IMG/VR virus record: IMGVR_UViG_3300047160_001675
Coordinates: 1 to 40,531 of that record
Direction: 5' to 3' (one strand)
DNA length: 40,531 bases
From: a virus
Numbering within the stretch: the first letter of the stretch is position 1; the number at the start of each line of letters is the position of its first letter. Made by a program: the position numbers and the translations under genes. The notes under the pieces were generated by a model, which was not told the DNA's origin, searched no databases, and worked only from the letters and a program-made list of their open reading frames with translations. This document shows, one piece after another, positions 1 to 40,531 of this stretch.

Positions 1-97
1 GCATCGAGTACATGATCTTAAGTATTTCCGCTTCTTCTTTATTAGCTTCAAGTAGCCCGTTATCGTCTAGTTGCTGCCCGTATGGCACACGGCCCAC
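1..97. repeat. Terminal direct overlap, copy 1 (identical to 40435..40531). It implies a circular replicon or circular assembly of about 40,434 bp.
   Basis: Base-by-base comparison shows 97/97 identity between the first 97 nt and the last 97 nt of the window. Confidence 0.95.
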
Positions 98-559
98 GCG
101 TTCGCCTCTAGCTTTCTTACGGGCTAGGGCTGCCTTAGTGCGCGTCGAGATCACAAGAGCCTCATACATCGCGAATAGATCCATTATGCCCCTAAGCAAG
201 ATGTTATGGGGCTCGTCGCCCTCCATCTCACCTATTGCAGAAACTAGTTTCGCTTTTTTCTTCTCTATGATACGCTCTATCATACCGATAATGTATGGGT
301 CACGTGCTAAACGTTCCCGCTTATGGACTATTAGCACGTCATCCTTCTTCAGAAGGGAAAGAGCTTCCAGAAGCTTAGGACGCTCCTCTAGCTCCTTCCT
401 TTTTCTATCTGTACCTGTAACAATATCAATGTATTCTTCGATCTGCCGCCCGCCTAGCTTCTTGATCCATTCCATGCAAGCATGACGTTGAGCGTCTAGA
501 CCTAAGCCTGAATCCTCTTGCTTGTCTGTCGAGACCCTAAGGTATATGAAATACCGCAT
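1..559 (-). CDS. Serine recombinase (resolvase/invertase catalytic domain), 5' part. The gene continues across the window junction to 40271.
   Basis: This ORF is not in the supplied track because it runs off the edge. Hand translation from ATG 559..557 gives MRYFIYLRVSTDKQEDSGLGLDAQRHACMEWIKKLGG...ARKKARGERVGRVPYGQQ. YLRVSTDKQ is the catalytic-serine motif of serine recombinases. The frame joins exactly to ORF 40271..40531 once the 97-bp overlap is collapsed, giving 723 nt = 240 aa plus stop. Confidence 0.9.
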   Translation of the reverse strand, partial: MRYFIYLRVSTDKQEDSGLGLDAQRHACMEWIKKLGGRQIEEYIDIVTGTDRKRKELEERPKLLEALSLLKKDDVLIVHKRERLARDPYIIGMIERIIEKKKAKLVSAIGEMEGDEPHNILLRGIMDLFAMYEALVISTRTKAALARKKARGERVGRVPYGQQLDDNGLLEANKEEAEILKIMYSM

Positions 560-792
560 CACTCAACCTTCTTTAACTGGCTAGAGTCGCTAATCATGCA
601 ACATTCTTTCATACGCAATACGGTCTTAACTTCTACCATATCGGTTTCTAAGCGTGTCATTCTATCCTCGATCTTTTCAATTCTCTTAGATAGATTGCTC
701 CACACGAAACCCAAAACGGCGGTTATAAAAGCCGTTTGGAGCCCTATCAACCACATGATTGTCTGGGCAAATCTCCACGTGTTTTCATCCAT
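559..792 (-). CDS. Small membrane-anchored coiled-coil protein (77 aa).
   Basis: The N-terminal segment WLIGLQTAFITAVLGFVW is hydrophobic and is followed by a heptad-like segment. Its TGA stop overlaps the recombinase ATG (TGATG). Confidence 0.55.
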   Translation of the reverse strand: MDENTWRFAQTIMWLIGLQTAFITAVLGFVWSNLSKRIEKIEDRMTRLETDMVEVKTVLRMKECCMISDSSQLKKVE

Positions 793-825
793 AAAATTTT
801 TCCTTTGATTTAATGTGTTGCTTAT

Positions 826-1131
826 CTATTGTTCATGTTGTAACTTTTGGACTGCCTGCTTACATTTAGTTAGCATCCGGGCGCCCACTTCGTCAACGTC
901 GATGATGGCGCGCGTGTCCATTAATCTAAGAAGGTCTGATATGACTACCAGCGACCGCCCTAAGTTGTATTTAATGGTTTCGACGCATTCGCGTTCATCC
1001 GTTTCAAGATACTTAGATTCTAGCGCCTTAGATTGTAGTTCATACGCACCTTTTAAAGATACAGCGTACGACCCCAAAGCGAATATATATTCTTCAAGCG
1101 TTTCAATGCTCTTTGTATCAATGAAATTCAT
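826..1131 (-). CDS. Hypothetical helical protein (101 aa).
   Basis: ORF in the leftward operon. ATGA overlap with the upstream gene. Confidence 0.55.
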   Translation of the reverse strand: MNFIDTKSIETLEEYIFALGSYAVSLKGAYELQSKALESKYLETDERECVETIKYNLGRSLVVISDLLRLMDTRAIIDVDEVGARMLTKCKQAVQKLQHEQ

Positions 1132-1409
1132 CTACAAGCCTCCGGCAGTTCGATTTTTCGCACCTCAATTTCAACAACAAACCCCATAGCACGCATATGC
1201 TCTATCTCAATTTTAGTGAACGTTTTACGCCTCATTAATATAGCAAGTCCATAGGCGAACTTATTGACGGGATAAAATAAAGGTCGCGTCAATACGTCCG
1301 CATATGATACTTTGACCGTCGGCAATCCCTTATCTTCATAGTCAAGGTCGAGACCCTGCCATATCTTCTTGTAATCTTCTTTTGCCTTTTCTAGCTCTTG
1401 CTTGTTCAT
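1128..1409 (-). CDS. Hypothetical protein (93 aa).
   Basis: AAGGGGA Shine-Dalgarno 5 nt upstream of ATG 1409. Sits in the operon. Confidence 0.6.
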   Translation of the reverse strand: MNKQELEKAKEDYKKIWQGLDLDYEDKGLPTVKVSYADVLTRPLFYPVNKFAYGLAILMRRKTFTKIEIEHMRAMGFVVEIEVRKIELPEACR

Positions 1410-1517: not shown

Positions 1518-2051
1518 TTAGTGATTCCAAAATACATGCATGCCGTCATCAAGTTCTATAGTGAATATGTCGCTGTTTAAGTCCATATCACGCCCCATAG
1601 CATCCCAATTGATGTAATATTGAAGGTGCTTAGGAATTTCGTGCCCGCATTCATGCGTTATATATTCGGCATACTCCCCAAGGTCTTTATGAGTTCCTTG
1701 ATAATTGTTATCAAGAAATTCTTTTGCTTCTTCAATGCTTGTTCCTGATCCCAAATGTGCCACTAACTCTAAGATTAATTCGCCGTTATCCTCACTTTCA
1801 AGCATGTTCGCAATGTTACAAACTTCTTCTAGGCTACTTCTTTCTTCAACGCGATAAGAGCCGAAACCCTCATAATCGTGAATGTCCCATTCTTCCGCTA
1901 TTTCGCCGTATTCCTTTGTAACCGGCGAATCTTTTAACATTGTGTTAACCTCTTGCAAAACATCGTCATAGTCTTGCGCTGCATTGATCCAACGCCCATG
2001 TAACCAACCATTATTATATGCAGCTAAACAAGCAACGTATACGCGCGCCAT
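1518..2051 (-). CDS. ardA: ArdA-family anti-restriction protein (DNA mimic inhibiting type I R-M).
   Basis: Three segments run parallel to Tn916 Orf18/ArdA as I remember it. VYVACLAAYNNGWLHGRWI matches VYIANLGKYNEGELVGAWF. EEWDIHDYEG matches YAIHDYE. LQYYINWDAMGRDMDLNSDIFTI matches LQNYIDYQAYGRDLDLSGTFI. The protein is acidic and about 177 aa. Confidence 0.85.
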   Translation of the reverse strand: MARVYVACLAAYNNGWLHGRWINAAQDYDDVLQEVNTMLKDSPVTKEYGEIAEEWDIHDYEGFGSYRVEERSSLEEVCNIANMLESEDNGELILELVAHLGSGTSIEEAKEFLDNNYQGTHKDLGEYAEYITHECGHEIPKHLQYYINWDAMGRDMDLNSDIFTIELDDGMHVFWNH

Positions 2052-2142: not shown

Positions 2143-2370
2143 TTAATCCGGCATTAAGTCCTTAGGTGAAACGCCTAAAGCCCTAGCGATATAAACTATC
2201 TTTTCTAATCCTACGCTTCTATGTCCTCTCTCTACTGAGCTTATATAAGTCGGGTGCAAGTGCGCTAATTCGGCTAATTGCTCTTGAGACAATTCGGCCT
2301 GATAGCGCAACATGCGCACCGTTAACCCAAAGGTTTTCTTTATAGATTGTTTTTTAAACTCTTTAGTCAT
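2143..2370 (-). CDS. XRE/Cro-C1-type helix-turn-helix transcriptional regulator (75 aa).
   Basis: LSQEQLAELAHLHPTYISSVERGHRSVGLEKIVYIARALGVSPKDL is a canonical HTH_3 pattern. Confidence 0.85.
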   Translation of the reverse strand: MTKEFKKQSIKKTFGLTVRMLRYQAELSQEQLAELAHLHPTYISSVERGHRSVGLEKIVYIARALGVSPKDLMPD

Positions 2371-2743: not shown

Positions 2744-3097
2744 TCAACTATGCACATAATTCCACCCCCTATAGTGCTGACGGTCGAACGCTTCAATACC
2801 GGCAATCTCTAACACACCATAGAGGCGTTTAGACACACCCGGAAGGCGCGCAATTGATCCGTTAGGGTTAATCCTAAAGCTTCCAGTTTTCTTGCATGGA
2901 CGCGTTTGTAGTAAATCTTTCTTATCTTGAGACCAAGGCCCGGTAAACTCATAGACCGTCCCGGTGATAGCGCCGTCCTTATTTTCTTTCCCTATTTGCA
3001 ATATGTATTTGTAGTTAGAAGAATAGCGGTCAAATTCGTCGAGTTTTTCAACTTGATCTAATACGCAATTAGCGCGTGCACTACATGAATAGCCCAT
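2744..3097 (-). CDS. Hypothetical protein (117 aa).
   Basis: ORF coupled to the upstream gene by TAATG. Ends in TGA. Confidence 0.55.
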   Translation of the reverse strand: MGYSCSARANCVLDQVEKLDEFDRYSSNYKYILQIGKENKDGAITGTVYEFTGPWSQDKKDLLQTRPCKKTGSFRINPNGSIARLPGVSKRLYGVLEIAGIEAFDRQHYRGWNYVHS

Positions 3098-3686: not shown

Positions 3687-4118
3687 GTGAATCACGCGCA
3701 AGATAACATGGGATTTCCTAAAGGTGATAAACGTATAGGCGATAAAGCGCGCCAACCTTCCAACGGGGTTAAGATAGCTAGTGAGCTAATAGCGGAAGCG
3801 CTACGCAAAACTAGAGGCAATATAGCGCGCGCTGCTGATAAGATAGGGATTACTCGTACTACCTTACACTCACGCATAAATAGAGAGCCTGAGTTGAAAC
3901 AGATTGTAGATGACTCTAGAGAGCGTTTTCTTGACGATCTCGAGGATGTCTTTCAGAACAAAGCTCTTTCTGGTGACACTGTAAGCGGGTTGTTCTTACT
4001 CAAGACTATAGGAAGAAAGCGCGGATACGATCAAGACCGTGATGTTATGGTTGAGAGCGCAACTAAGGGCGCTTTAGACTTCATATTCAACCGCACAAAG
4101 AATCCTGCTGAGTCTTAG
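3687..4118 (+). CDS. HTH-domain protein resembling a terminase small subunit or a regulator (143 aa; GTG start, alternative ATG at 3708).
   Basis: GNIARAADKIGITRTTLHSRI is an HTH. The C-terminal ALSGDTVSGLFLLKTIGRKRGY resembles the tail of some TerS families. The gene lies 7 kb from TerL, so the role is uncertain. Confidence 0.35.
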   Translation: MNHAQDNMGFPKGDKRIGDKARQPSNGVKIASELIAEALRKTRGNIARAADKIGITRTTLHSRINREPELKQIVDDSRERFLDDLEDVFQNKALSGDTVSGLFLLKTIGRKRGYDQDRDVMVESATKGALDFIFNRTKNPAES

Positions 4119-5350: not shown

Positions 5351-5550
5351 TGTATTTAGTATTGATTCCAGTGCAGAAGCTTAATGGTGCTCGAAGTAAT
5401 TATTATGAAGCTAACTATATGGCAGATCCAGTTGATGTGTGTAGAGCGCTCGGAGGGGGTGCTATAGTTTACAAGTTAGATGCGTTAACAGAGATTATAG
5501 ACATTGAAATTACTTGTAGCGAGAAGGTGATAAATGCAAAGCGAACGTAG
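5350..5550 (+). CDS. Hypothetical protein (66 aa).
   Basis: TAATG-coupled ORF. Confidence 0.5.
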   Translation: MYLVLIPVQKLNGARSNYYEANYMADPVDVCRALGGGAIVYKLDALTEIIDIEITCSEKVINAKRT

Positions 5551-6199
5551 TCTTATTTATCGACCAAACTATCAAGACTATAGATTTAGTTTCATTCCAG
5601 AGTTCGAGGCATACGGCTGAAAGTTTACGCAGGGTACTGCGATATTGAATGATGCGTGGGTGATTAACCTTAGGACGCCGGGCCGTAAGTACAAGATCCG
5701 TAGAGATAGGTATGTGGGTCAGCATAAGTCTGTTCGCTTCCGTAGATATGAACAACTGCCTTGTGTGCCACTAGATAGTTATGCAGATCCCGGCTCTGAT
5801 CCTGTCAACTATGAAGAGCTTAACCTGCTCTATAGTAATGCTAAGAAGTCTTGGGATGCAAGGTCTACATATTTAGGCACTCTGAGGGAGATGCAGAGGG
5901 AGTATAACGTTAGAAAGTCTAAAGAATTATGGGAATCCCCATGCGATGGGGTTTATAAGTTTAATACAATCAAAAGAAGGAAGAAAGAAATGTTTAATGA
6001 AGACGAAGTTAGTTTCATTGAAGAAACTGCAAATAGAGATTTGAAGGCTCTTAATCACAAGATTGAGCAGATGGTTAATGAGATGGCGCGCATGGGTAAG
6101 CAGTTGAGCGACCTGAAGGTTGTGGAGTCTAAGTTGACTTCGATTCTTAGAGCGATCGAAGAAGAAAAAGAAGATGATCGCTGCCGCGGGGCCTGCTAA
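5534..6199 (+). CDS. Hypothetical protein whose ORF is interrupted by an in-frame TGA at 5618..5620 (28 codons, TGA, 192 codons).
   Basis: ATG 5534 has the SD GAGAAGGTGA. MQSERSLIYRPNYQDYRFSFIPEFEAYG ends at TGA and is in the same frame as track ORF 5645..6199. That track ORF begins at a TTG with no SD. Confidence 0.5.
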
Positions 6200-6736: not shown

Positions 6737-6808
6737 GGGTTCATGGTGCAGCGGCTAGCATACCTCCCTGTCACGGAGGAGGCGACAGTTCGATTCTGTC
6801 TGATCCCG
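6737..6808 (+). tRNA. tRNA-Asp: tRNA-Asp (anticodon GUC), CCA not encoded.
   Basis: Hand-folded cloverleaf. Acceptor GGGTTCA/TGATCCC has one T.T mismatch. D stem GTGC/GCAT. Anticodon stem CCTCC/GGAGG with loop CTGTCAC. T arm GACAG-TTCGATT-CTGTC. Confidence 0.8.
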
Positions 6809-6810
6809 AC

Positions 6811-6883
6811 GGACTCGTAGCTCAGTCGGTAGAGCAGCGGATTGTTAATCCGCAGCGCGTAGGTTCAAGTCCTGCCGAGTCCT
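6811..6883 (+). tRNA. tRNA-Asn: tRNA-Asn (anticodon GUU), CCA not encoded.
   Basis: Acceptor GGACTCG/CGAGTCC is perfect. D arm GCTC-AGTCGGTA-GAGC. Anticodon stem GCGGA/TCCGC with loop TTGTTAA. T arm GTAGG-TTCAAGT-CCTGC. Confidence 0.9.
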
Positions 6884-6885
6884 AA

Positions 6886-6959
6886 CGTGCCGTAGCTCAA
6901 TAGGTTAGAGCGGCACTCTTATAAGGTGCAGGTCGGTGGTTCAATTCCACCCGGCACGA
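6886..6959 (+). tRNA. tRNA-Ile: tRNA-Ile (anticodon UAU, AUA decoder), CCA not encoded.
   Basis: Acceptor CGTGCCG/CGGCACG is perfect. D arm GCTC-AATAGGTTA-GAGC. Anticodon stem GCACT/GGTGC with loop CTTATAA. T arm GGTGG-TTCAATT-CCACC. Confidence 0.85.
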
Positions 6960-6996: not shown

Positions 6997-7308
6997 ATGT
7001 TCAATAGGAAGAAAGAGAAAGAGAGATTAGAGAGAGAGAAACTTATGCGTTTAGAGTTAAACGCGTTTCACGGTACTGTGAGGGCTGCCGAGAAACAGAG
7101 CCATGAAGCAGTTCAACTTCTTAAGGAGCTTAAGTATAAGATTAATGAAGATATGAGGGAAGAGCTAGATACTACTCAGAGAAAGTATATAGCTCTGTTG
7201 GAAGCAAAACTCATTCAATTCGATCAAGAAGCTGTTAAGATAAAAGCAGAGAAGGACGCTCAATATCAGCGCCTTCATAATTACTTCTATTCAGGTGCTC
7301 GTCCTTAG
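6997..7308 (+). CDS. Coiled-coil protein (103 aa).
   Basis: GAGGT SD. Charged heptad-rich sequence. Confidence 0.6.
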   Translation: MFNRKKEKERLEREKLMRLELNAFHGTVRAAEKQSHEAVQLLKELKYKINEDMREELDTTQRKYIALLEAKLIQFDQEAVKIKAEKDAQYQRLHNYFYSGARP

Positions 7309-7566
7309 CTTATAGAGGTGTTCAATAGCGTCGCATAGAATCTTGGACTTTTCAGGCTTTCCTGAGCGTTTCATCTCTTCTAAGCATAGCTCGTTGAACA
7401 TCTTCCAATGCTCTTCACTTAGGTACATTGTCACCTTAACCTTTTCCTGTTTAGGTGTGTTTACTTCTTGCGGTTTTGATGTATCTACGTTTTGCGGTAT
7501 TGCCTCGTAGTCCATTAACTTCATCTTCTTTTTGATGCTTTCTTTAGCTTGTTCTATACTCGACAT
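7291..7566 (-). CDS. Small ParA partner, probable ribbon-helix-helix centromere-binding protein (ParG/CopG-like, 91 aa).
   Basis: It sits directly downstream of parA and overlaps it by 13 nt. GGAGGAAG SD. The C-terminal KVKVTMYLSEEHWKMFNELCLEEMKRSGKPEKSKILCDAIEHL has a beta-strand plus two-helix RHH pattern. Confidence 0.45.
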   Translation of the reverse strand: MSSIEQAKESIKKKMKLMDYEAIPQNVDTSKPQEVNTPKQEKVKVTMYLSEEHWKMFNELCLEEMKRSGKPEKSKILCDAIEHLYKLRTST

Positions 7567-8318
7567 TTTACTTCCTCCACTAGTTCACGATAGGCTTCTG
7601 CGCCTTTAGAATCAGGGGCATAATCGAAGATCGACTTGCCGTTCTTTTGTGCTTCATCCAGCTTAATGTTTTGCGGTATTACGGTATTTAGTAACTTAGG
7701 GCCAAAGATTTCATGCAGCGCGGTGTTTACTTCCTTAGCTGCGTTTGCCCTTAGGTCGTGAAATGTTACCAGAACGCCTGTGATCTCTATACGGTGTTTT
7801 TGTACCCAGCCAATCTTTTCGTTAATGTAGTTGACGGTTTCAATGAAGCTATTGACGCCCTCCAAGGCGAAATAGCGTAATTGAACCGGCAGAATGATCT
7901 CTTTAGCTGCGATAAATGAGTTGATCGTCAGGTTGCCGAAGTTAGGTGGGCAGTCAATGATGATGTAGTCATGCTGCTCATTTTCGATCTTATTCTTTAG
8001 GCGAAACTCTTTTGCGCCCATAGAGGATAACTTCATATCTGCAATCGCTAGAGATAAATCAGCTGGAATGATATCAAGATTTGGAATGTAGGTAGGTTGC
8101 CTTACATCACCAACTGATACCGATTCATTACATAGAAGGTCTGAGATTGTGAGCTTGGATTCTGTGCTTATTCCAAGCCCTTTAGAGGTATTTCCTTGAG
8201 GGTCGATATCTACCAGCAATACTTTATTACCGCAATACGCTAAACCGGCAGCAAGGTTAATGGCCGTTGTAGACTTACCTACACCGCCTTTTTGATTTGA
8301 GATCGCTATAATTCGCAT
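7554..8318 (-). CDS. parA: ParA/Soj-family partition ATPase (254 aa).
   Basis: Deviant Walker A NQKGGVGKSTTAINLA. Also VLLVDIDPQGN, IIIDCPP and the VIPQNIKLDEA motif. Confidence 0.9.
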   Translation of the reverse strand: MRIIAISNQKGGVGKSTTAINLAAGLAYCGNKVLLVDIDPQGNTSKGLGISTESKLTISDLLCNESVSVGDVRQPTYIPNLDIIPADLSLAIADMKLSSMGAKEFRLKNKIENEQHDYIIIDCPPNFGNLTINSFIAAKEIILPVQLRYFALEGVNSFIETVNYINEKIGWVQKHRIEITGVLVTFHDLRANAAKEVNTALHEIFGPKLLNTVIPQNIKLDEAQKNGKSIFDYAPDSKGAEAYRELVEEVKCRV

Positions 8319-8896: not shown

Positions 8897-10075
8897 TTAA
8901 TCCTTATATGGGTCTATTTCGTTTTCTGAGGCCATACAAACGCCTATCGGCTTAAGTCGGTGTATTGCCTTGACCGTCTCGCGATGTGCGAATAGAACTT
9001 GTTCTATGCGTTTATAGCAATGCGGGGATTCATCCACACCAGCCCCCCGGAGTTCGACATCGAAACGTTTAACCCAATCTTCCATGTCGTTCTGGGATAC
9101 CAACCCAGCTCTAATAATTTCGCCTGTCTTACGATTACGCTTTCCTTTAGCCTGGGCGCGACCCATAATCCGGCCGGCGCCGTGGATGGTCGAATACATA
9201 GAATCTTTGGATTCGTCGCTATCCACTCCTTCAAGGATGAATGAGTAATCACCCATAGACCCGCCAACAAAGCTTTTTTCGCCGGGAAAATTAGGCGTTG
9301 CGCCCTTTCTAACGACCCATAAGTCTTTCCCAAAATGAGACTCCCTCCATGCAAAATTATGGTGATTGTGTACTTCTTCCAGAATGTCGGCTCGTAGTAT
9401 CTGCGCAACACGCGCACACACCCAATCACGCCCTGCGTAAGCGTACCTACCAGCCATTTCCATACATTTGAGGTACTGTTCTCCGAGGTCGGAAGTTTCG
9501 TCCAAGACAACTGGTTTTGCGTGAATACCATCCTTCCCCCCCGCTTTTTCTATAAAATGTGTGGCTATGGAGTGTCCCAATCCGCGGCTCCCAAAATGTA
9601 CCCCAATCCACACGCGATCAAGATCGTCAACAAAAATATCAACATAATGGTTACCGGAACCAACAGTGCCAAGCTGCTCAATAGCTTTAGACCTAAGATT
9701 CCTAAGCAAATCAAGCTCAGTCCATAAAGGATCATCAAAAAGATTGTGCTCGACTCGTTCATTATTTTTCCTCCCTACTCCGAAGCTGATGTGCTTCTGG
9801 ACTTCGTTCATACTTCGATAGATGTTAGCCCGTACTTGATTAGAATCAGCGTTAACCCGTACAGCCTTATTGCCACATGCAATGTCAAAGCCAACGCCAT
9901 TAACACAGATACGCCCTTCATAAGCGATAACGCCACCAATAGGCACGCTATATCCAATATGGTGATCAGCCATAAGGGCTCCGCAATAAGCTTCATGCTT
10001 CAAGGCCTCCTGCATTTGTAGAATTGTTTCGGCGTCAGGGTCACCCCATACCGGAAGATTATTTAGTCTTTGCAT
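8897..10075 (-). CDS. rtcB: RtcB-family RNA ligase (3'-phosphate/2',3'-cyclic phosphate to 5'-OH ligase).
   Basis: The expected motifs are present: MADHHIGYSVPIGGV, GFDIACGN, GSGNHYVDIF, HFGSRGLGH, HNHHNFAW, GSMGDYSFIL, HGAGR and PHCYKRI. I place the start at ATG 10075 (MQRLNNLPVWG, AAGGAG upstream). The ORF also stays open back to 10126. Confidence 0.9.
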   Translation of the reverse strand: MQRLNNLPVWGDPDAETILQMQEALKHEAYCGALMADHHIGYSVPIGGVIAYEGRICVNGVGFDIACGNKAVRVNADSNQVRANIYRSMNEVQKHISFGVGRKNNERVEHNLFDDPLWTELDLLRNLRSKAIEQLGTVGSGNHYVDIFVDDLDRVWIGVHFGSRGLGHSIATHFIEKAGGKDGIHAKPVVLDETSDLGEQYLKCMEMAGRYAYAGRDWVCARVAQILRADILEEVHNHHNFAWRESHFGKDLWVVRKGATPNFPGEKSFVGGSMGDYSFILEGVDSDESKDSMYSTIHGAGRIMGRAQAKGKRNRKTGEIIRAGLVSQNDMEDWVKRFDVELRGAGVDESPHCYKRIEQVLFAHRETVKAIHRLKPIGVCMASENEIDPYKD

Positions 10076-10268
10076 CTTTCTTCCACTCCTTAGCCAATTC
10101 AGGCTTGCAGATAACGAAAGTTGCATCTAACTCTTTAGCCCATTGCATATCTACTTTCCAATGTTCGTGGCAATACTTCTTAACAAGATTTTGGAACTCC
10201 TTCAAAGGTACGGCTCCCCTGAATACAACATAACCCTCGTCATGTATCTCTAAGCACCATGTAGACAT
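10059..10268 (-). CDS. Small hypothetical protein (69 aa), first gene of the rtcB-parA operon.
   Basis: AGGAGG SD upstream of ATG 10268 (MSTWCLEIHDEG...). It overlaps the rtcB start by 17 nt. Confidence 0.55.
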   Translation of the reverse strand: MSTWCLEIHDEGYVVFRGAVPLKEFQNLVKKYCHEHWKVDMQWAKELDATFVICKPELAKEWKKDAKTK

Positions 10269-38414: not shown

Positions 38415-38592
38415 GACTCCATACGAGGAGTTAAAAGAATATATTGATGACTACATAAACTTTATGGAGAAGATCAATAAAAAGCGTATGGCAGCAGCCG
38501 AGAAAGAGCTTGAACACACTATCCAAGAGGGTAGAGCGTTCAACCTTTTACGTCAAAATATAACCAATTTGGAGGCTCATGGAGTATCCTAA
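38398..38592 (+). CDS. Hypothetical coiled-coil protein (64 aa; start moved to the internal ATG).
   Basis: GGAGGG SD upstream of ATG 38398. Confidence 0.55.
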   Translation: MSKKPKTPYEELKEYIDDYINFMEKINKKRMAAAEKELEHTIQEGRAFNLLRQNITNLEAHGVS

Positions 38593-39287
38593 AATAAACT
38601 CTCTATGGAAAAGACACGGATGGTACTTCGACGAAAAGGAGAAGAAGGAGTGTCTTTGACGCTTCACGCCAAAAGCTTCGACAGTCTTTCATCGAGGGGG
38701 ACTATGCTTGCCCAGAGTTCGGTTCCATAAATAGATGGATGATCGACGAAAAAGTTGACGGCACTAATGTGCGGATTTTTTGGGAGCCAGCAGACCAGTT
38801 TTCCCCGAACTACGGAGGCAGGACAGATAACGCACAAATGCCAACCTCTCTCCTTCAACACTTGCAACATACTTTTACCCGCGAAAAGCTTCAAAAGCAG
38901 TTTCCTGATGCACGGAAGGTCATTCTTTTCGGCGAAGGGTACGGCCCAAAGATCCAAGCCTGTGGAGGTAGGTATCGTAAAGACGTGTCCTTCATCCTCT
39001 TCGACGTCTGGATCGACGGATGGTGGCTCGAAAAGGAAAGTGTATTGGAGATCGCCTCGGCACTTGATATTGAACACACCATTAATCAAAAGATTATGAC
39101 AACCGCTGAGGTTGTTGAATTCGTAAAATCTAAGCCCAAGAGTTACATCGCGGAAGATAGGGAGCTGATCATGGAGGGGGTAATAGCGCGAAGCGTCCCG
39201 CTTATGCTCTTCAGAAATCACAAAACTCCTATCATGTTCAAACTTAAAGTTAGAGACTTCCCAGATATTAGCGAGGTCGAAGCTTAA
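38579..39287 (+). CDS. ATP-dependent RNA ligase (Rnl2/PF09414-like), assembled as join(38579..38656, 38658..39287). It needs a +1 frameshift at CUU-UGA and would give 235 aa.
   Basis: Motif I is EKVDGTN, with the lysine codon at 38751. Motif III-like is ILFGEGYG, motif IV-like is FILFDVW, and motif V-like is EGVIARS...FKLK. The N-terminal MEYPKINSLWKR resembles T4 Rnl2 MFKKYSSLENHY and lies in the -1 frame relative to the body. The body frame has no start codon or SD upstream of motif I. Confidence 0.65.
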
Positions 39288-39748
39288 TGATCAAGTTAAT
39301 ACTGCCGGGAGATCCTGTAGCTCAAGCGCGAATTAGAGTATTCAAGAGGGGGAATAGGGTTATGACCTTTGACCCACAAACAGCTTTAAAGAGGGATTTG
39401 AAGATCAAAGTCGCGGATGATCTGCAAAAACTCGACTGAAAGCAACCGGAATACCCGCGCGTGATGTTCTGGTTCTACATGCCCATACCCAAAAGCATGT
39501 CGAAAAGGGATCGTGTAGACGCTAATAAAGGGTTCCTGAAGCACGTTAAGAAGCCTGATGTTGATAATCTTATCAAGTTATATCTCGACGTGCTGTCAGG
39601 GATTGTGATTAAAGATGACAATAGTGTGGCTATAGGTAGCGCTATCAAGGTTTATTCTTGTAAGCCCCGGGTGGAGATTTACATAGAGGAGACCCAAAAG
39701 AATGTAACAATGAATGAGGTATGGGAGGGTACATGGTCGACGCAGTAG
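39287..39748 (+). CDS. rusA: RusA-family Holliday-junction resolvase interrupted by an in-frame TGA at 39437..39439 (50 codons, TGA, 102 codons).
   Basis: The N-terminal part MIKLILPGDPVAQARIRV and the C-terminal part FWFYMPIPKSMSKRDR...KKPDVDNLIKLYLDVLSGIVIKDDNSV (PDxDN and DD motifs) are in one frame. The upstream part is TAATG-coupled to the ligase gene. Confidence 0.65.
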
Positions 39749-40323
39749 AAGAAGCATTAAATCAAATACAAGATAGATTATATGATAATATCATTGGCGG
39801 TGAGTTTAATAGCTTTATTAGTAATATGTCTTCATCAACTAAAGAGCGAATGGTTAAAGACAATATTATAGGACAAACTAGAGAGTTCTTTAATAAATTA
39901 AATAGTGAGTTTGAAGATATCCGTTTTATGTATTTTTGGGGTATGGGGCCATGCCTTTTAAACTCTGAGATGCACCGGGTATATACTGATCGGTATAACG
40001 AAGATTATGCCGAAGATAGCTATAACGATTTCGATGCAATGTACGACCGCGAAGGGGATACTGAATATTTTTATCAGACTCCGCTTACGGAAATTACAAT
40101 TAGAGTTGAATATTACTGGGAGAGAGTTTGTTCTTTAGGTTGCAGGCATAGAACTAAACGTTTCTATCTATTTAATATTCCTAAACTATTAGATTTCATT
40201 GGTTATTTAAAGGTAGGTATGCCGGTAAGAACTTTTGTTAAAGAGTTCATACCGGACTTCTTTTACGATCCTACAATCGCCCCTGTAAAGCGAGGACGCC
40301 CGAAAAAAGCTTCTCATAATTAA
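39733..40323 (+). CDS. Hypothetical protein (196 aa) with a C-terminal AT-hook-like KRGRPKK.
   Basis: GGAGGG upstream of ATG 39733 (alternative ATG at 39721). The 3' end overlaps the convergent recombinase gene by 53 nt. Confidence 0.55.
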   Translation: MVDAVEEALNQIQDRLYDNIIGGEFNSFISNMSSSTKERMVKDNIIGQTREFFNKLNSEFEDIRFMYFWGMGPCLLNSEMHRVYTDRYNEDYAEDSYNDFDAMYDREGDTEYFYQTPLTEITIRVEYYWERVCSLGCRHRTKRFYLFNIPKLLDFIGYLKVGMPVRTFVKEFIPDFFYDPTIAPVKRGRPKKASHN

Positions 40324-40531
40324 TATATACTCGAGAGGTGGCGCCATGCGTCCATATACCGCCATCTCTATTTCGATAGCCCATATCGTTTAACTGATCC
40401 GCAATAGTCCTAAAGGTCATTCCTTTATGCTTCCGCATCGAGTACATGATCTTAAGTATTTCCGCTTCTTCTTTATTAGCTTCAAGTAGCCCGTTATCGT
40501 CTAGTTGCTGCCCGTATGGCACACGGCCCAC
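40271..40531 (-). CDS. Serine recombinase, 3' part (recombinase/HTH-like DNA-binding region).
   Basis: GRVPYGQQLDDNGLLEANKEEAEILKIMYSMRKHKGMTFRTIADQLNDMGYRNRDGGIWT resembles the PYGY...IA..LN..G...W 'recombinase' domain of serine integrases. The protein stops at 240 aa with no zinc-ribbon or coiled-coil extension. Confidence 0.85.
   Translation of the reverse strand: MGRVPYGQQLDDNGLLEANKEEAEILKIMYSMRKHKGMTFRTIADQLNDMGYRNRDGGIWTHGATSRVYINYEKLFSGVLALQGRL
40435..40531. repeat. Terminal direct overlap, copy 2.
   Basis: Identical to 1..97. Confidence 0.95.

Follow-up and report, generated by a model that had tools for sequence, protein, structure and literature searches.

The viral DNA recorded as IMGVR_UViG_3300047160_001675 (40,531 nucleotides [nt], analyzed over its whole length and called the window here) carries a gene for a RusA Holliday junction resolvase that is split by an in-frame UGA at codon 51. 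Comparison with related phages indicates that this stop is real, that selection has retained it at a position occupied by tryptophan in intact relatives, and that the gene, as far as its sequence can tell, is one intact functional gene that needs UGA decoding and has a predicted junction-resolving activity. The best reading of these data, and one toward which we lean, is that a selected leaky UGA limits or times RusA synthesis.

The RusA frame opens at the ATG at 39287, runs through 50 sense codons to the TGA at 39437-39439 (GAC TGA AAG), and continues for 102 codons to the TAG at 39746-39748. As the original prediction had it, the two parts lie in the same frame, parted only by this TGA, and the first part is coupled to an upstream RNA ligase gene, whose stop codon TAA (39285-39287) overlaps the RusA start as TAATG (...GCT TAA TG ATC..., 39283-39292). 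With the stop masked, the 153-residue product matches PF05866 over residues 7 to 134 and the whole of the model (1-124/124; E = 4e-23), with a score of 82.7 bits for the readthrough product against a cutoff of 22.8, and because this match runs end to end across the stop, the domain is truly interrupted. The catalytic motifs that had been assigned to the C-terminal 102 codons (PDVDN and DD) are present, as KKPDVDN and DDN, their D, N, and K columns are invariant in an alignment of 34 homologues (alignment A4), and their acidic residues are probably equivalent, at the level of the motif rather than by a residue-by-residue mapping, to D70, D72, and D91 of the E. coli enzyme. A PDB sequence search with RusA gave no match, and a fold search was used in its place, with the closest intact homologue (P0001, 70% identical to the window RusA) standing in for the window protein. 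The AlphaFold (AF2) model of P0001 (predicted local distance difference test [pLDDT], 92.9) has as its top Foldseek matches the E. coli RusA structures 2H8E, 2H8C, and 1Q8R (probability 1.0; target-normalized template modeling [TM] score, 0.64 to 0.70). In this model, residues 1 to 50 form strand b1, a b-hairpin, and helix a1, and position 51 is a loop. The N-terminal piece is part of the fold, as these elements are integral to the model, and since the stop lies inside a single catalytic domain, only the readthrough product can be active.

Relatives of the window were collected by protein-guided searches of IMG/VR, JGI/ENA metagenomes, and Logan assemblies. In 14 other distinct relatives, all from independent samples, the same column of the RusA alignment holds TGA, never TAA or TAG (bearers are L001, L002, L003, L026/27, L028, L030, L013, L014, L033, L086, L087, L088, and L089), and codon 51 is TGA in 15 of 19 ingroup genes, the window included. 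About 40 further protein clusters at 90% identity are RusA C-terminal fragments of 84 to 102 amino acids, and all four of the four sampled prove to be TGA split. Among ten TGA-bearing RusA genes, synonymous sites are saturated (mean proportion of synonymous differences [pS], 0.77 to 0.83), and the ratio of nonsynonymous to synonymous proportions (pN/pS) is low in the N-terminal part, in the eight-codon linker that follows the stop, and in the columns after the linker (Table 1). Such low ratios at saturated pS mean that all three parts are translated in the RusA frame. The linker varies synonymously among relatives (CCG/CCT/CCA, CGC/CGG/AGG/CGT, and GTG/GTT), and the frame between the two halves is unbroken in all 15 genes. 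The first downstream starts are, as had been stated, GTG 39461 and ATG 39464, which no GGAGG-type Shine-Dalgarno (SD) sequence precedes; the ATG is replaced by ACG, TCG, or TCT in L013, L030, L014, and L033. With its internal ATG not conserved and its linker constrained in the RusA frame, the 3' part is not an independent gene, and the claim that a functional RusA requires UGA decoding is borne out by the conserved TGA, the constraint on both halves, and the domain that spans the stop.

The identity of the inserted residue follows from the same comparison. Codon 51 is TGG in L034, L082/83, L085, and L084, and the column is W in about 14 of 22 full-length database homologues, within a W-x-x-P-x-[YF]-P-R motif; the other residues found there are Y, F, M, K, N, or D, never Cys. 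TGG or W in intact relatives supports tryptophan as the inserted residue, and the RusA UGA is almost certainly read in this way. A second Trp column of RusA (window codon 62, F-W-F-Y-M) is TGA in L030, L035, L088, and L084, and tblastn of the window proteins against all loci found in-frame TGAs in the terminase, portal, capsid, tail, and replication genes of relatives. In the contigs that use TGA heavily (D, J, K, W, and Z), 41 of 47 in-frame TGAs align to a W of the window proteins. This search with real window proteins replaced a first all-against-all comparison with masked stops, which was too noisy, as close relatives align in noncoding frames too. The original prediction had handled the leaky stop as an isolated, gene-specific event; the decoding of UGA stands and the isolation does not, the stop being at a RusA-family Trp position in a UGA-variable phage family. 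The context NNC-UGA-AAG, which had been noted as shared with a site at position 5618, is real there (GGC TGA AAG) but is not conserved at the RusA site, where relatives have CAA TGA ACT, CTC TGA GCA, or AAT TGA GTG. After the RusA UGA, the consensus fold reaches -2.5 kcal/mol and contains 0 covarying pairs; the z for the fold of the window itself is -0.69.

In a neighbor-joining tree of RusA, which is of low resolution, TGA at codon 51 is spread across the whole ingroup and the TGG cases are scattered, which suggests that TGA is ancestral in the ingroup, with reversions to TGG. Among the ten TGA bearers, 55 of the 57 columns that hold a conserved degenerate residue show more than one codon, as do 11 of the 12 with a conserved Lys, Glu, or Gln, which have the same A/G choice as TGA/TGG, and the codon 51 column is invariant (10/10).

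The family, whose source samples are soil, rhizosphere, and groundwater, has three UGA states. In the standard (S) state, seen in L082/83 and probably in L085 and L034, codon 51 is TGG, the ligase lies in one frame, TGA is found at none of the other Trp columns, and TGA ends 6 of 35 genes in L082. The heavy, code-4-like (H) state is that of 3300012948_000012 (L014/L069/L079), L070, L071, L084 (annotated by NCBI under code 4), and L087 and, to a lesser degree, of L030, L035, and L088. Here codon 51 is mostly TGA, the ligase, where present, is in one frame, TGA ends 0 of 38 genes, and TGA takes 20 of 79, 9 of 38, and 10 of 33 Trp columns in the three largest contigs (about 25 to 30%), in early and late genes; a genome-wide sense TGA, with many fragmented genes, is seen in D, J, K, L084, and L087. 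The L state is that of the window's group (the window, L001-3, L013, L026/27, L086, L089, and the partial contigs L065, L066, and L074), with TGA at codon 51 in 8 of 8 members with RusA data, a prfB-type shift in the ligase in 8 of 8, and rare TGA terminators. In this subclade, TGA stands at none of several hundred conserved Trp columns, and the only in-frame TGAs are at shared fixed sites, RusA codon 51 and codon 29 of the open reading frame (ORF) at 5534. TGA is therefore not a neutral synonym in the L state, being otherwise absent from its Trp columns.

The window itself has 170 in-frame TGG codons against 2 in-frame TGA codons, the latter in 2 of 61 genes, and these 61 genes end in TAA (37), TAG (20), or TGA (4), TAG being five times commoner than TGA. 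A preponderance of TAG over TGA reverses the usual bacterial order, and the low-TGA relatives are alike in this respect (TAA, 144; TAG, 69; TGA, 10). At least two of the window's TGA terminators are genuine (those of the genes at 2744 and 7291; Table 1), since the sequence after them is unconstrained and one of them swaps with TAA in relatives. Marks of a code 4 phage are lacking from the window: it does not have many TGA-split genes, TGA as a terminator is depleted but still present, and it has no phage-encoded tRNA(UCA), a suppressor that such phages often but not always carry.

A further UGA-dependent event is predicted in the RNA ligase gene immediately upstream of RusA. Its first 26 codons run from ATG 38579 to CTT 38654-56 and meet a TGA at 38657-59, and the remainder lies in the +1 frame; this TGA is exactly 780 nt upstream of the RusA UGA, the spacing given in the original prediction. 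The known elements of the prfB frameshift are an SD-like purine run, a 3-nt spacer, CTTT, GA, and then C (PMC12421855). The ligase site matches every one of them, and by its sequence frameshifting is predicted. All eight diverged phages of the window's group for which there are data share an identical core, GGAGTGTCTTTGAC, although the two bases that precede it vary in L089, and this core is absent from every S and H relative compared. The ligase is single frame in L082, L084, L014, L034, and L035, and the shifted window product ...KKECL-DASRQKLRQSFI is collinear with the single-frame ligase of L082, ...KKEC-SPCRQAKRQSFI. A site of this type depends on a UGA that is decoded slowly in the A site. 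Not every member of the family couples the ligase to RusA: in L088 (9630-10276; Logan SRR14194033_5952), RusA is TGA split and no RNA ligase gene lies upstream of it.

The second fixed in-frame UGA of the window is in the ORF at 5534 (5534..6199), which has no Pfam or PHROGs match. Its TGA is found with the same GGC TGA AAG context in L086, L065, L066, L074, and L064/L003, and its N-terminal region does not align in S-state or heavy-TGA relatives. The link that had been drawn between the RusA UGA, the site at 5618, and the ligase frameshift is upheld, all three being conserved together in the window's subclade. A third in-frame TGA at 806 (CTT TGA T; plus-strand ORFs 518..808 and 815..1189) was rejected as a recoding site because its ORFs are antisense shadows of minus-strand genes, as was the TGA-terminated plus-strand ORF 12..485, which shadows a conserved minus-strand gene. 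The conserved minus-strand genes opposite ORFs 12-1189 are a resolvase and those at 559..792, 826..1131, and 1128..1409.

The ends of the window are identical over 97 nt (1-97 = 40435-40531), and a serine recombinase/resolvase gene on the minus strand spans the junction (about 559..1 joined to 40531..40271), so that the window is a complete phage genome, circular or circularly assembled, of about 40.4 kb. Neither ARAGORN, run on the window and 41 loci, nor Rfam, run on the window, found a tRNA(UCA) or suppressor tRNA, and the 30 nonstructural window proteins scanned included no release factor, no tRNA synthetase, and no tRNA-modifying enzyme. Of the tRNA cluster at 6737-6959 (Table 1), tRNA-Ile(UAU) is kept in L065, L066, and L086, and some of these add Pro(UGG). 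In L069 (7640-7716; IMGVR_UViG_3300012948_000012), the syntenic tRNA locus holds a tRNA-like gene whose acceptor stem is 8 bp long, whose D arm is weak, and whose anticodon loop has 8 nt (UGCAAUUC). The anticodon that ARAGORN assigns to it has 4 bases, CAAU, and the gene is ruled out by sequence as a UGA suppressor, there being no UCA in the loop. L087 (14251-16255; ENA ERZ27247778 k141_553583) has an array of at least 16 tRNA genes that reaches the end of the 16.3 kb covered; no Trp or suppressor tRNA lies in that part, and the remainder could hold one.

We therefore propose, from these comparisons, the following mechanism for the selected leaky UGA. Codon 51 must be read as tryptophan to give the 153-residue resolvase; RF2 would terminate most ribosomes after 50 RusA residues, and a fraction would insert Trp, probably by means of the host tRNA-Trp, which is the probable decoder because the complete phage genome has no tRNA(UCA). 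RusA output would thereby be kept low or be tied to the UGA-decoding state of the cell, and a plausible purpose would be to attenuate or time a nuclease that resolves junctions. UGA would be a weak stop in the host, and the phage would use it thrice, for the +1 shift in the ligase and for Trp readthrough in RusA and in the ORF at 5534. A weak-stop host is the most economical assumption because TGA terminators are rare, a general Trp-TGA is absent, no tRNA(UCA), release factor, or synthetase is encoded, and there is a prfB-type site. Readthrough would yield the peptide LQKLDWKQPEYPR, with Trp at position 51.

Several points weigh against this proposal. Partial efficiency, competition with RF2, and a regulatory purpose are all three things that we infer, and selection on the TGA itself rests on one column (roughly p = 0.04-0.08), a case that gains strength from the 5618 site and the ligase frameshift site, which are conserved in parallel. 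The termination product of 50 residues has no evident function. No stimulatory structure or distinctive context is found at the RusA UGA in the consensus fold and the flanking codons examined, and the window's genuine TGA terminators likewise carry A at +4; a stimulatory context or structure is, on the other hand, not obligatory for leakiness of UGA in bacteria. No host came from the GTDB genome collection, in which the RusA scan found nothing. Lastly, TGA terminators are depleted (4/61 versus 20 TAG) and relatives use TGA freely for Trp, which also fits a host that decodes UGA efficiently as Trp.

This last point leads to the main alternative, of code 4 type, which we regard as possible but rather doubtful for the window, namely, that the host or an unrecognized phage factor reads UGA efficiently as Trp and that codon 51 was inherited from a TGA-using ancestor, with no attenuation. 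Such efficient decoding must hold for the hosts of the H-state relatives, with their TGA at 25 to 30% of Trp columns and at 0 of 38 terminators, and the few TGA terminators of the window, together with a TGA at codon 51 that is common to its group and the heavy users and appears ancestral, are in keeping with it, as are the close standard and TGA-recoded relatives and the depletion of TGA stops before recoding described by Borges et al. (bioRxiv 10.1101/2021.08.26.457843). In the L subclade, however, TGA is at none of several hundred Trp columns despite saturated synonymous sites, whereas drift, such as the heavy users show, would be expected of a neutral synonym; at least two window genes end in TGA, with noncoding sequence after it and one TGA/TAA swap; the CUU-UGA-C site, which should work poorly under fast UGA decoding, is found only with the L state and is absent in heavy users; and the complete genome has no tRNA(UCA). 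Very improbable, in our view, is a split RusA, in which ribosomes terminate at the UGA and a separate C-terminal part arises by reinitiation or from an internal start, so that two polypeptides assemble or the C-terminal part acts alone. GTG 39461 and ATG 39464 do come 8 codons past the stop, and gene callers annotate C-terminal products of 84 to 102 amino acids, but this ATG is missing in four relatives, no SD sequence precedes the internal start, the eight linker codons are constrained in a RusA frame that is never broken in 15 genes, standard-code relatives have the sense codon TGG at column 51, and b1 and a1 are integral to the modeled fold.

An in-frame stop and a frameshift within 800 nt resemble decay at first sight, and the original prediction had allowed for a fresh pseudogene. 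That possibility, like that of a sequencing or assembly error, is refuted by the comparison: the same TGA recurs in independent metagenomes and Sequence Read Archive (SRA) assemblies, among them those of the 14 other relatives, and never as TAA or TAG; both RusA halves are under purifying selection; the frameshift core is identical in eight diverged genomes; and long ORFs elsewhere in the window are intact. Insertion of selenocysteine has in its favor that UGA is the selenocysteine codon, and we give it next to no weight, as the fold after the stop offers no conserved hairpin or selenocysteine insertion sequence (SECIS), homologues carry W, Y, or F and not C at column 51, and position 51 is, in the model, a loop and not a redox site.

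Our results lead us to speculate, tentatively and with more doubt than conviction, that the window's group has settled stably, between the standard code and code 4, in an "ambiguous UGA" state, in which UGA serves poorly in the host as a stop and poorly as a Trp codon and in which the ligase, with its prfB-like +1 frameshift, and RusA and the ORF at 5534, with their Trp readthrough, form a small UGA-dependent translational regulon. If this were true, the output of these three genes would follow how active RF2 is, or how well UGA is decoded, in the infected cell, and the family would be a natural example of codon reassignment through an ambiguous intermediate, with standard, intermediate, and reassigned members in one family.

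Table 1. Features of the window, with their coordinates and the evidence or remarks that go with them
Feature	Coordinates	Strand	Evidence or remarks
RusA Holliday junction resolvase gene, complete	39287..39748	+	153 codons including UGA; stop TAG 39746-39748; PF05866 and fold of closest intact homologue
RusA N-terminal 50 codons (strand b1, b-hairpin, helix a1)	39287..39436	+	pN/pS 0.31, with pS about 0.77; model
In-frame UGA, RusA codon 51, almost certainly read as Trp	39437..39439	+	TGA in 15/19 ingroup genes; TGG/W in intact relatives
RusA linker KQPEYPRV, eight codons from UGA to first downstream ATG	39440..39463	+	pN/pS 0.32; synonymous changes
RusA C-terminal part with KKPDVDN and DDN acidic motifs	39464..39745	+	pN/pS 0.24; invariant D/N/K columns
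RNA ligase gene, Rnl type (PF09414)	38579..39287	+	frame 0, 38579-38656; frame +1, 38658-39287; translationally coupled to RusA
prfB-type +1 frameshift signal (predicted)	38645..38660	+	AAGGAG 38645-50, TGT, CTT 38654-56, TGA 38657-59, C 38660
Second fixed in-frame UGA (GGC TGA AAG)	5618..5620	+	codon 29 of 221-codon ORF 5534..6199 (ATG 5534, TAA end)
Gene with genuine TGA terminator	2744..3097	-	
Gene with genuine TGA terminator	7291..7566	-	
tRNA cluster Asp(GUC), Asn(GUU), Ile(UAU)	6737-6959		none able to read UGA
RtcB-type tRNA/RNA ligase	8897-10126	-	
ArdA antirestriction protein	1518-2051	-	
ParA/MinD-type ATPase	7554-8318	-	
Cro/C1-type helix-turn-helix (HTH) protein	2143-2370	-	
Fis-type HTH protein	3687-4118	+	

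Among its other genes, the window encodes an ArdA antirestriction protein, a ParA/MinD-type ATPase, and Cro/C1-type and Fis-type HTH proteins, a set that, with the resolvase, hints at a plasmid-like (phage-plasmid) lifestyle. The RtcB-type tRNA/RNA ligase is encoded in addition to the Rnl-type RNA ligase, so that one of two RNA ligases would be under the predicted UGA-dependent frameshift control; the presence of two suggests a function in the repair of RNA (tRNA), perhaps to counter anticodon nucleases of the host. A search of 185,579 species genomes found no integrated copies, and a megablast of the region against GenBank phages gave no match. The closest cultured phages are distant by protein (at most 39% identity for RusA, 45% for terminase, and 28% for primase), and since only distant cultured phages were matched, no host can be named from them. 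A terminase scan of the GTDB collection returned only short binned contigs of metagenome-assembled genomes (MAGs), 67% identical and belonging to an unclassified MAG and to a groundwater MAG labeled "Bacteroidales", which do not suffice to name a host, and SD usage, in 30 of 61 window genes, does not identify the host.

These findings have consequences for annotation and beyond. Standard pipelines cut RusA into a "hypothetical" pair of 50 and about 95 amino acids, a split that about 40 database clusters show, and they also miss the N terminus of the ligase. The RusA UGA, placed in an essential part of the enzyme fold, is kept over saturated divergence and has gone back to TGG chiefly where UGA acts as an ordinary stop. 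A family with standard, intermediate, and heavily recoded members is a tractable system in which to study how stop codon reassignments start, and three co-conserved UGA events, one of them a prfB mimic, bear on the use by phages of UGA decoding, and of competition with RF2, as a regulatory input. As in programmed readthrough, the RusA stop is conserved, of fixed identity, and followed by constraint in the same frame.

Programmed readthrough of UGA with tRNA-Trp is known from the RNA phage Qbeta, where it makes the A1 protein; there, the main functional protein is the short product, and a minor one comes from the extension. The RusA site resembles it, and leaky UGAs generally, in its conserved UGA, in same-frame coding after the stop, in the Trp inserted, and in that no special downstream structure is required. 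Unlike the Qbeta stop, that of RusA lies inside a single catalytic domain. Leakiness of UGA is documented in E. coli, Salmonella, and Bacillus subtilis, with 6% at catA86-TGA (cited in PMC7918605). The autoregulatory +1 frameshift of prfB, which encodes RF2 (PMC12421855), has all its elements in the ligase and, like the RusA site, relies on slow handling of UGA; the phage RNA ligase site would report RF2 activity rather than regulate it, and the RusA event stays in frame.

Recoding of stop codons in phages, including TGA as Trp, with close standard and recoded relatives and depletion of TGA stops in the standard ones, is established (Borges et al., bioRxiv 10.1101/2021.08.26.457843). As in the TGA-recoded phages of that study (Agate, crAss-like), an in-frame TGA here stands for Trp, very close relatives differ in code, and standard-looking relatives are poor in TGA terminators, at 2.7% in their example versus 4 of 61 here. 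Those phages are from the gut, and the family described here is from soil, rhizosphere, and groundwater. Their recoded stops gather in late structural and lysis genes, usually with a phage suppressor tRNA, whereas the window has no tRNA(UCA), only two fixed in-frame TGAs (one in RusA, in the replication and recombination module, and one in an ORF without assigned function), and some TGA terminators left.

In the survey of Belinky et al. (PMC7918605), in-frame stops are kept under constraint in prokaryotes, and leakiness of UGA with Trp insertion is the classical explanation. The RusA stop is alike in the coding constraint on both of its sides, and mobile and phage genes are overrepresented in the survey. 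That survey covers shallow divergence (synonymous divergence [dS] of about 0.003 to 0.004), whereas the RusA stop persists through saturated synonymous divergence and, unlike the surveyed cases, can be matched to one particular residue and to a shift in what UGA means across the family. We found neither the RusA site nor a phage gene with a prfB-type site described in the literature, coverage of the literature being incomplete and this being weak evidence of novelty. Compared with the systems above, what differs here is a single UGA kept in a catalytic fold through saturated divergence, its connection to tryptophan and to a family with three UGA states, and the link to a ligase frameshift site that mimics that of prfB.

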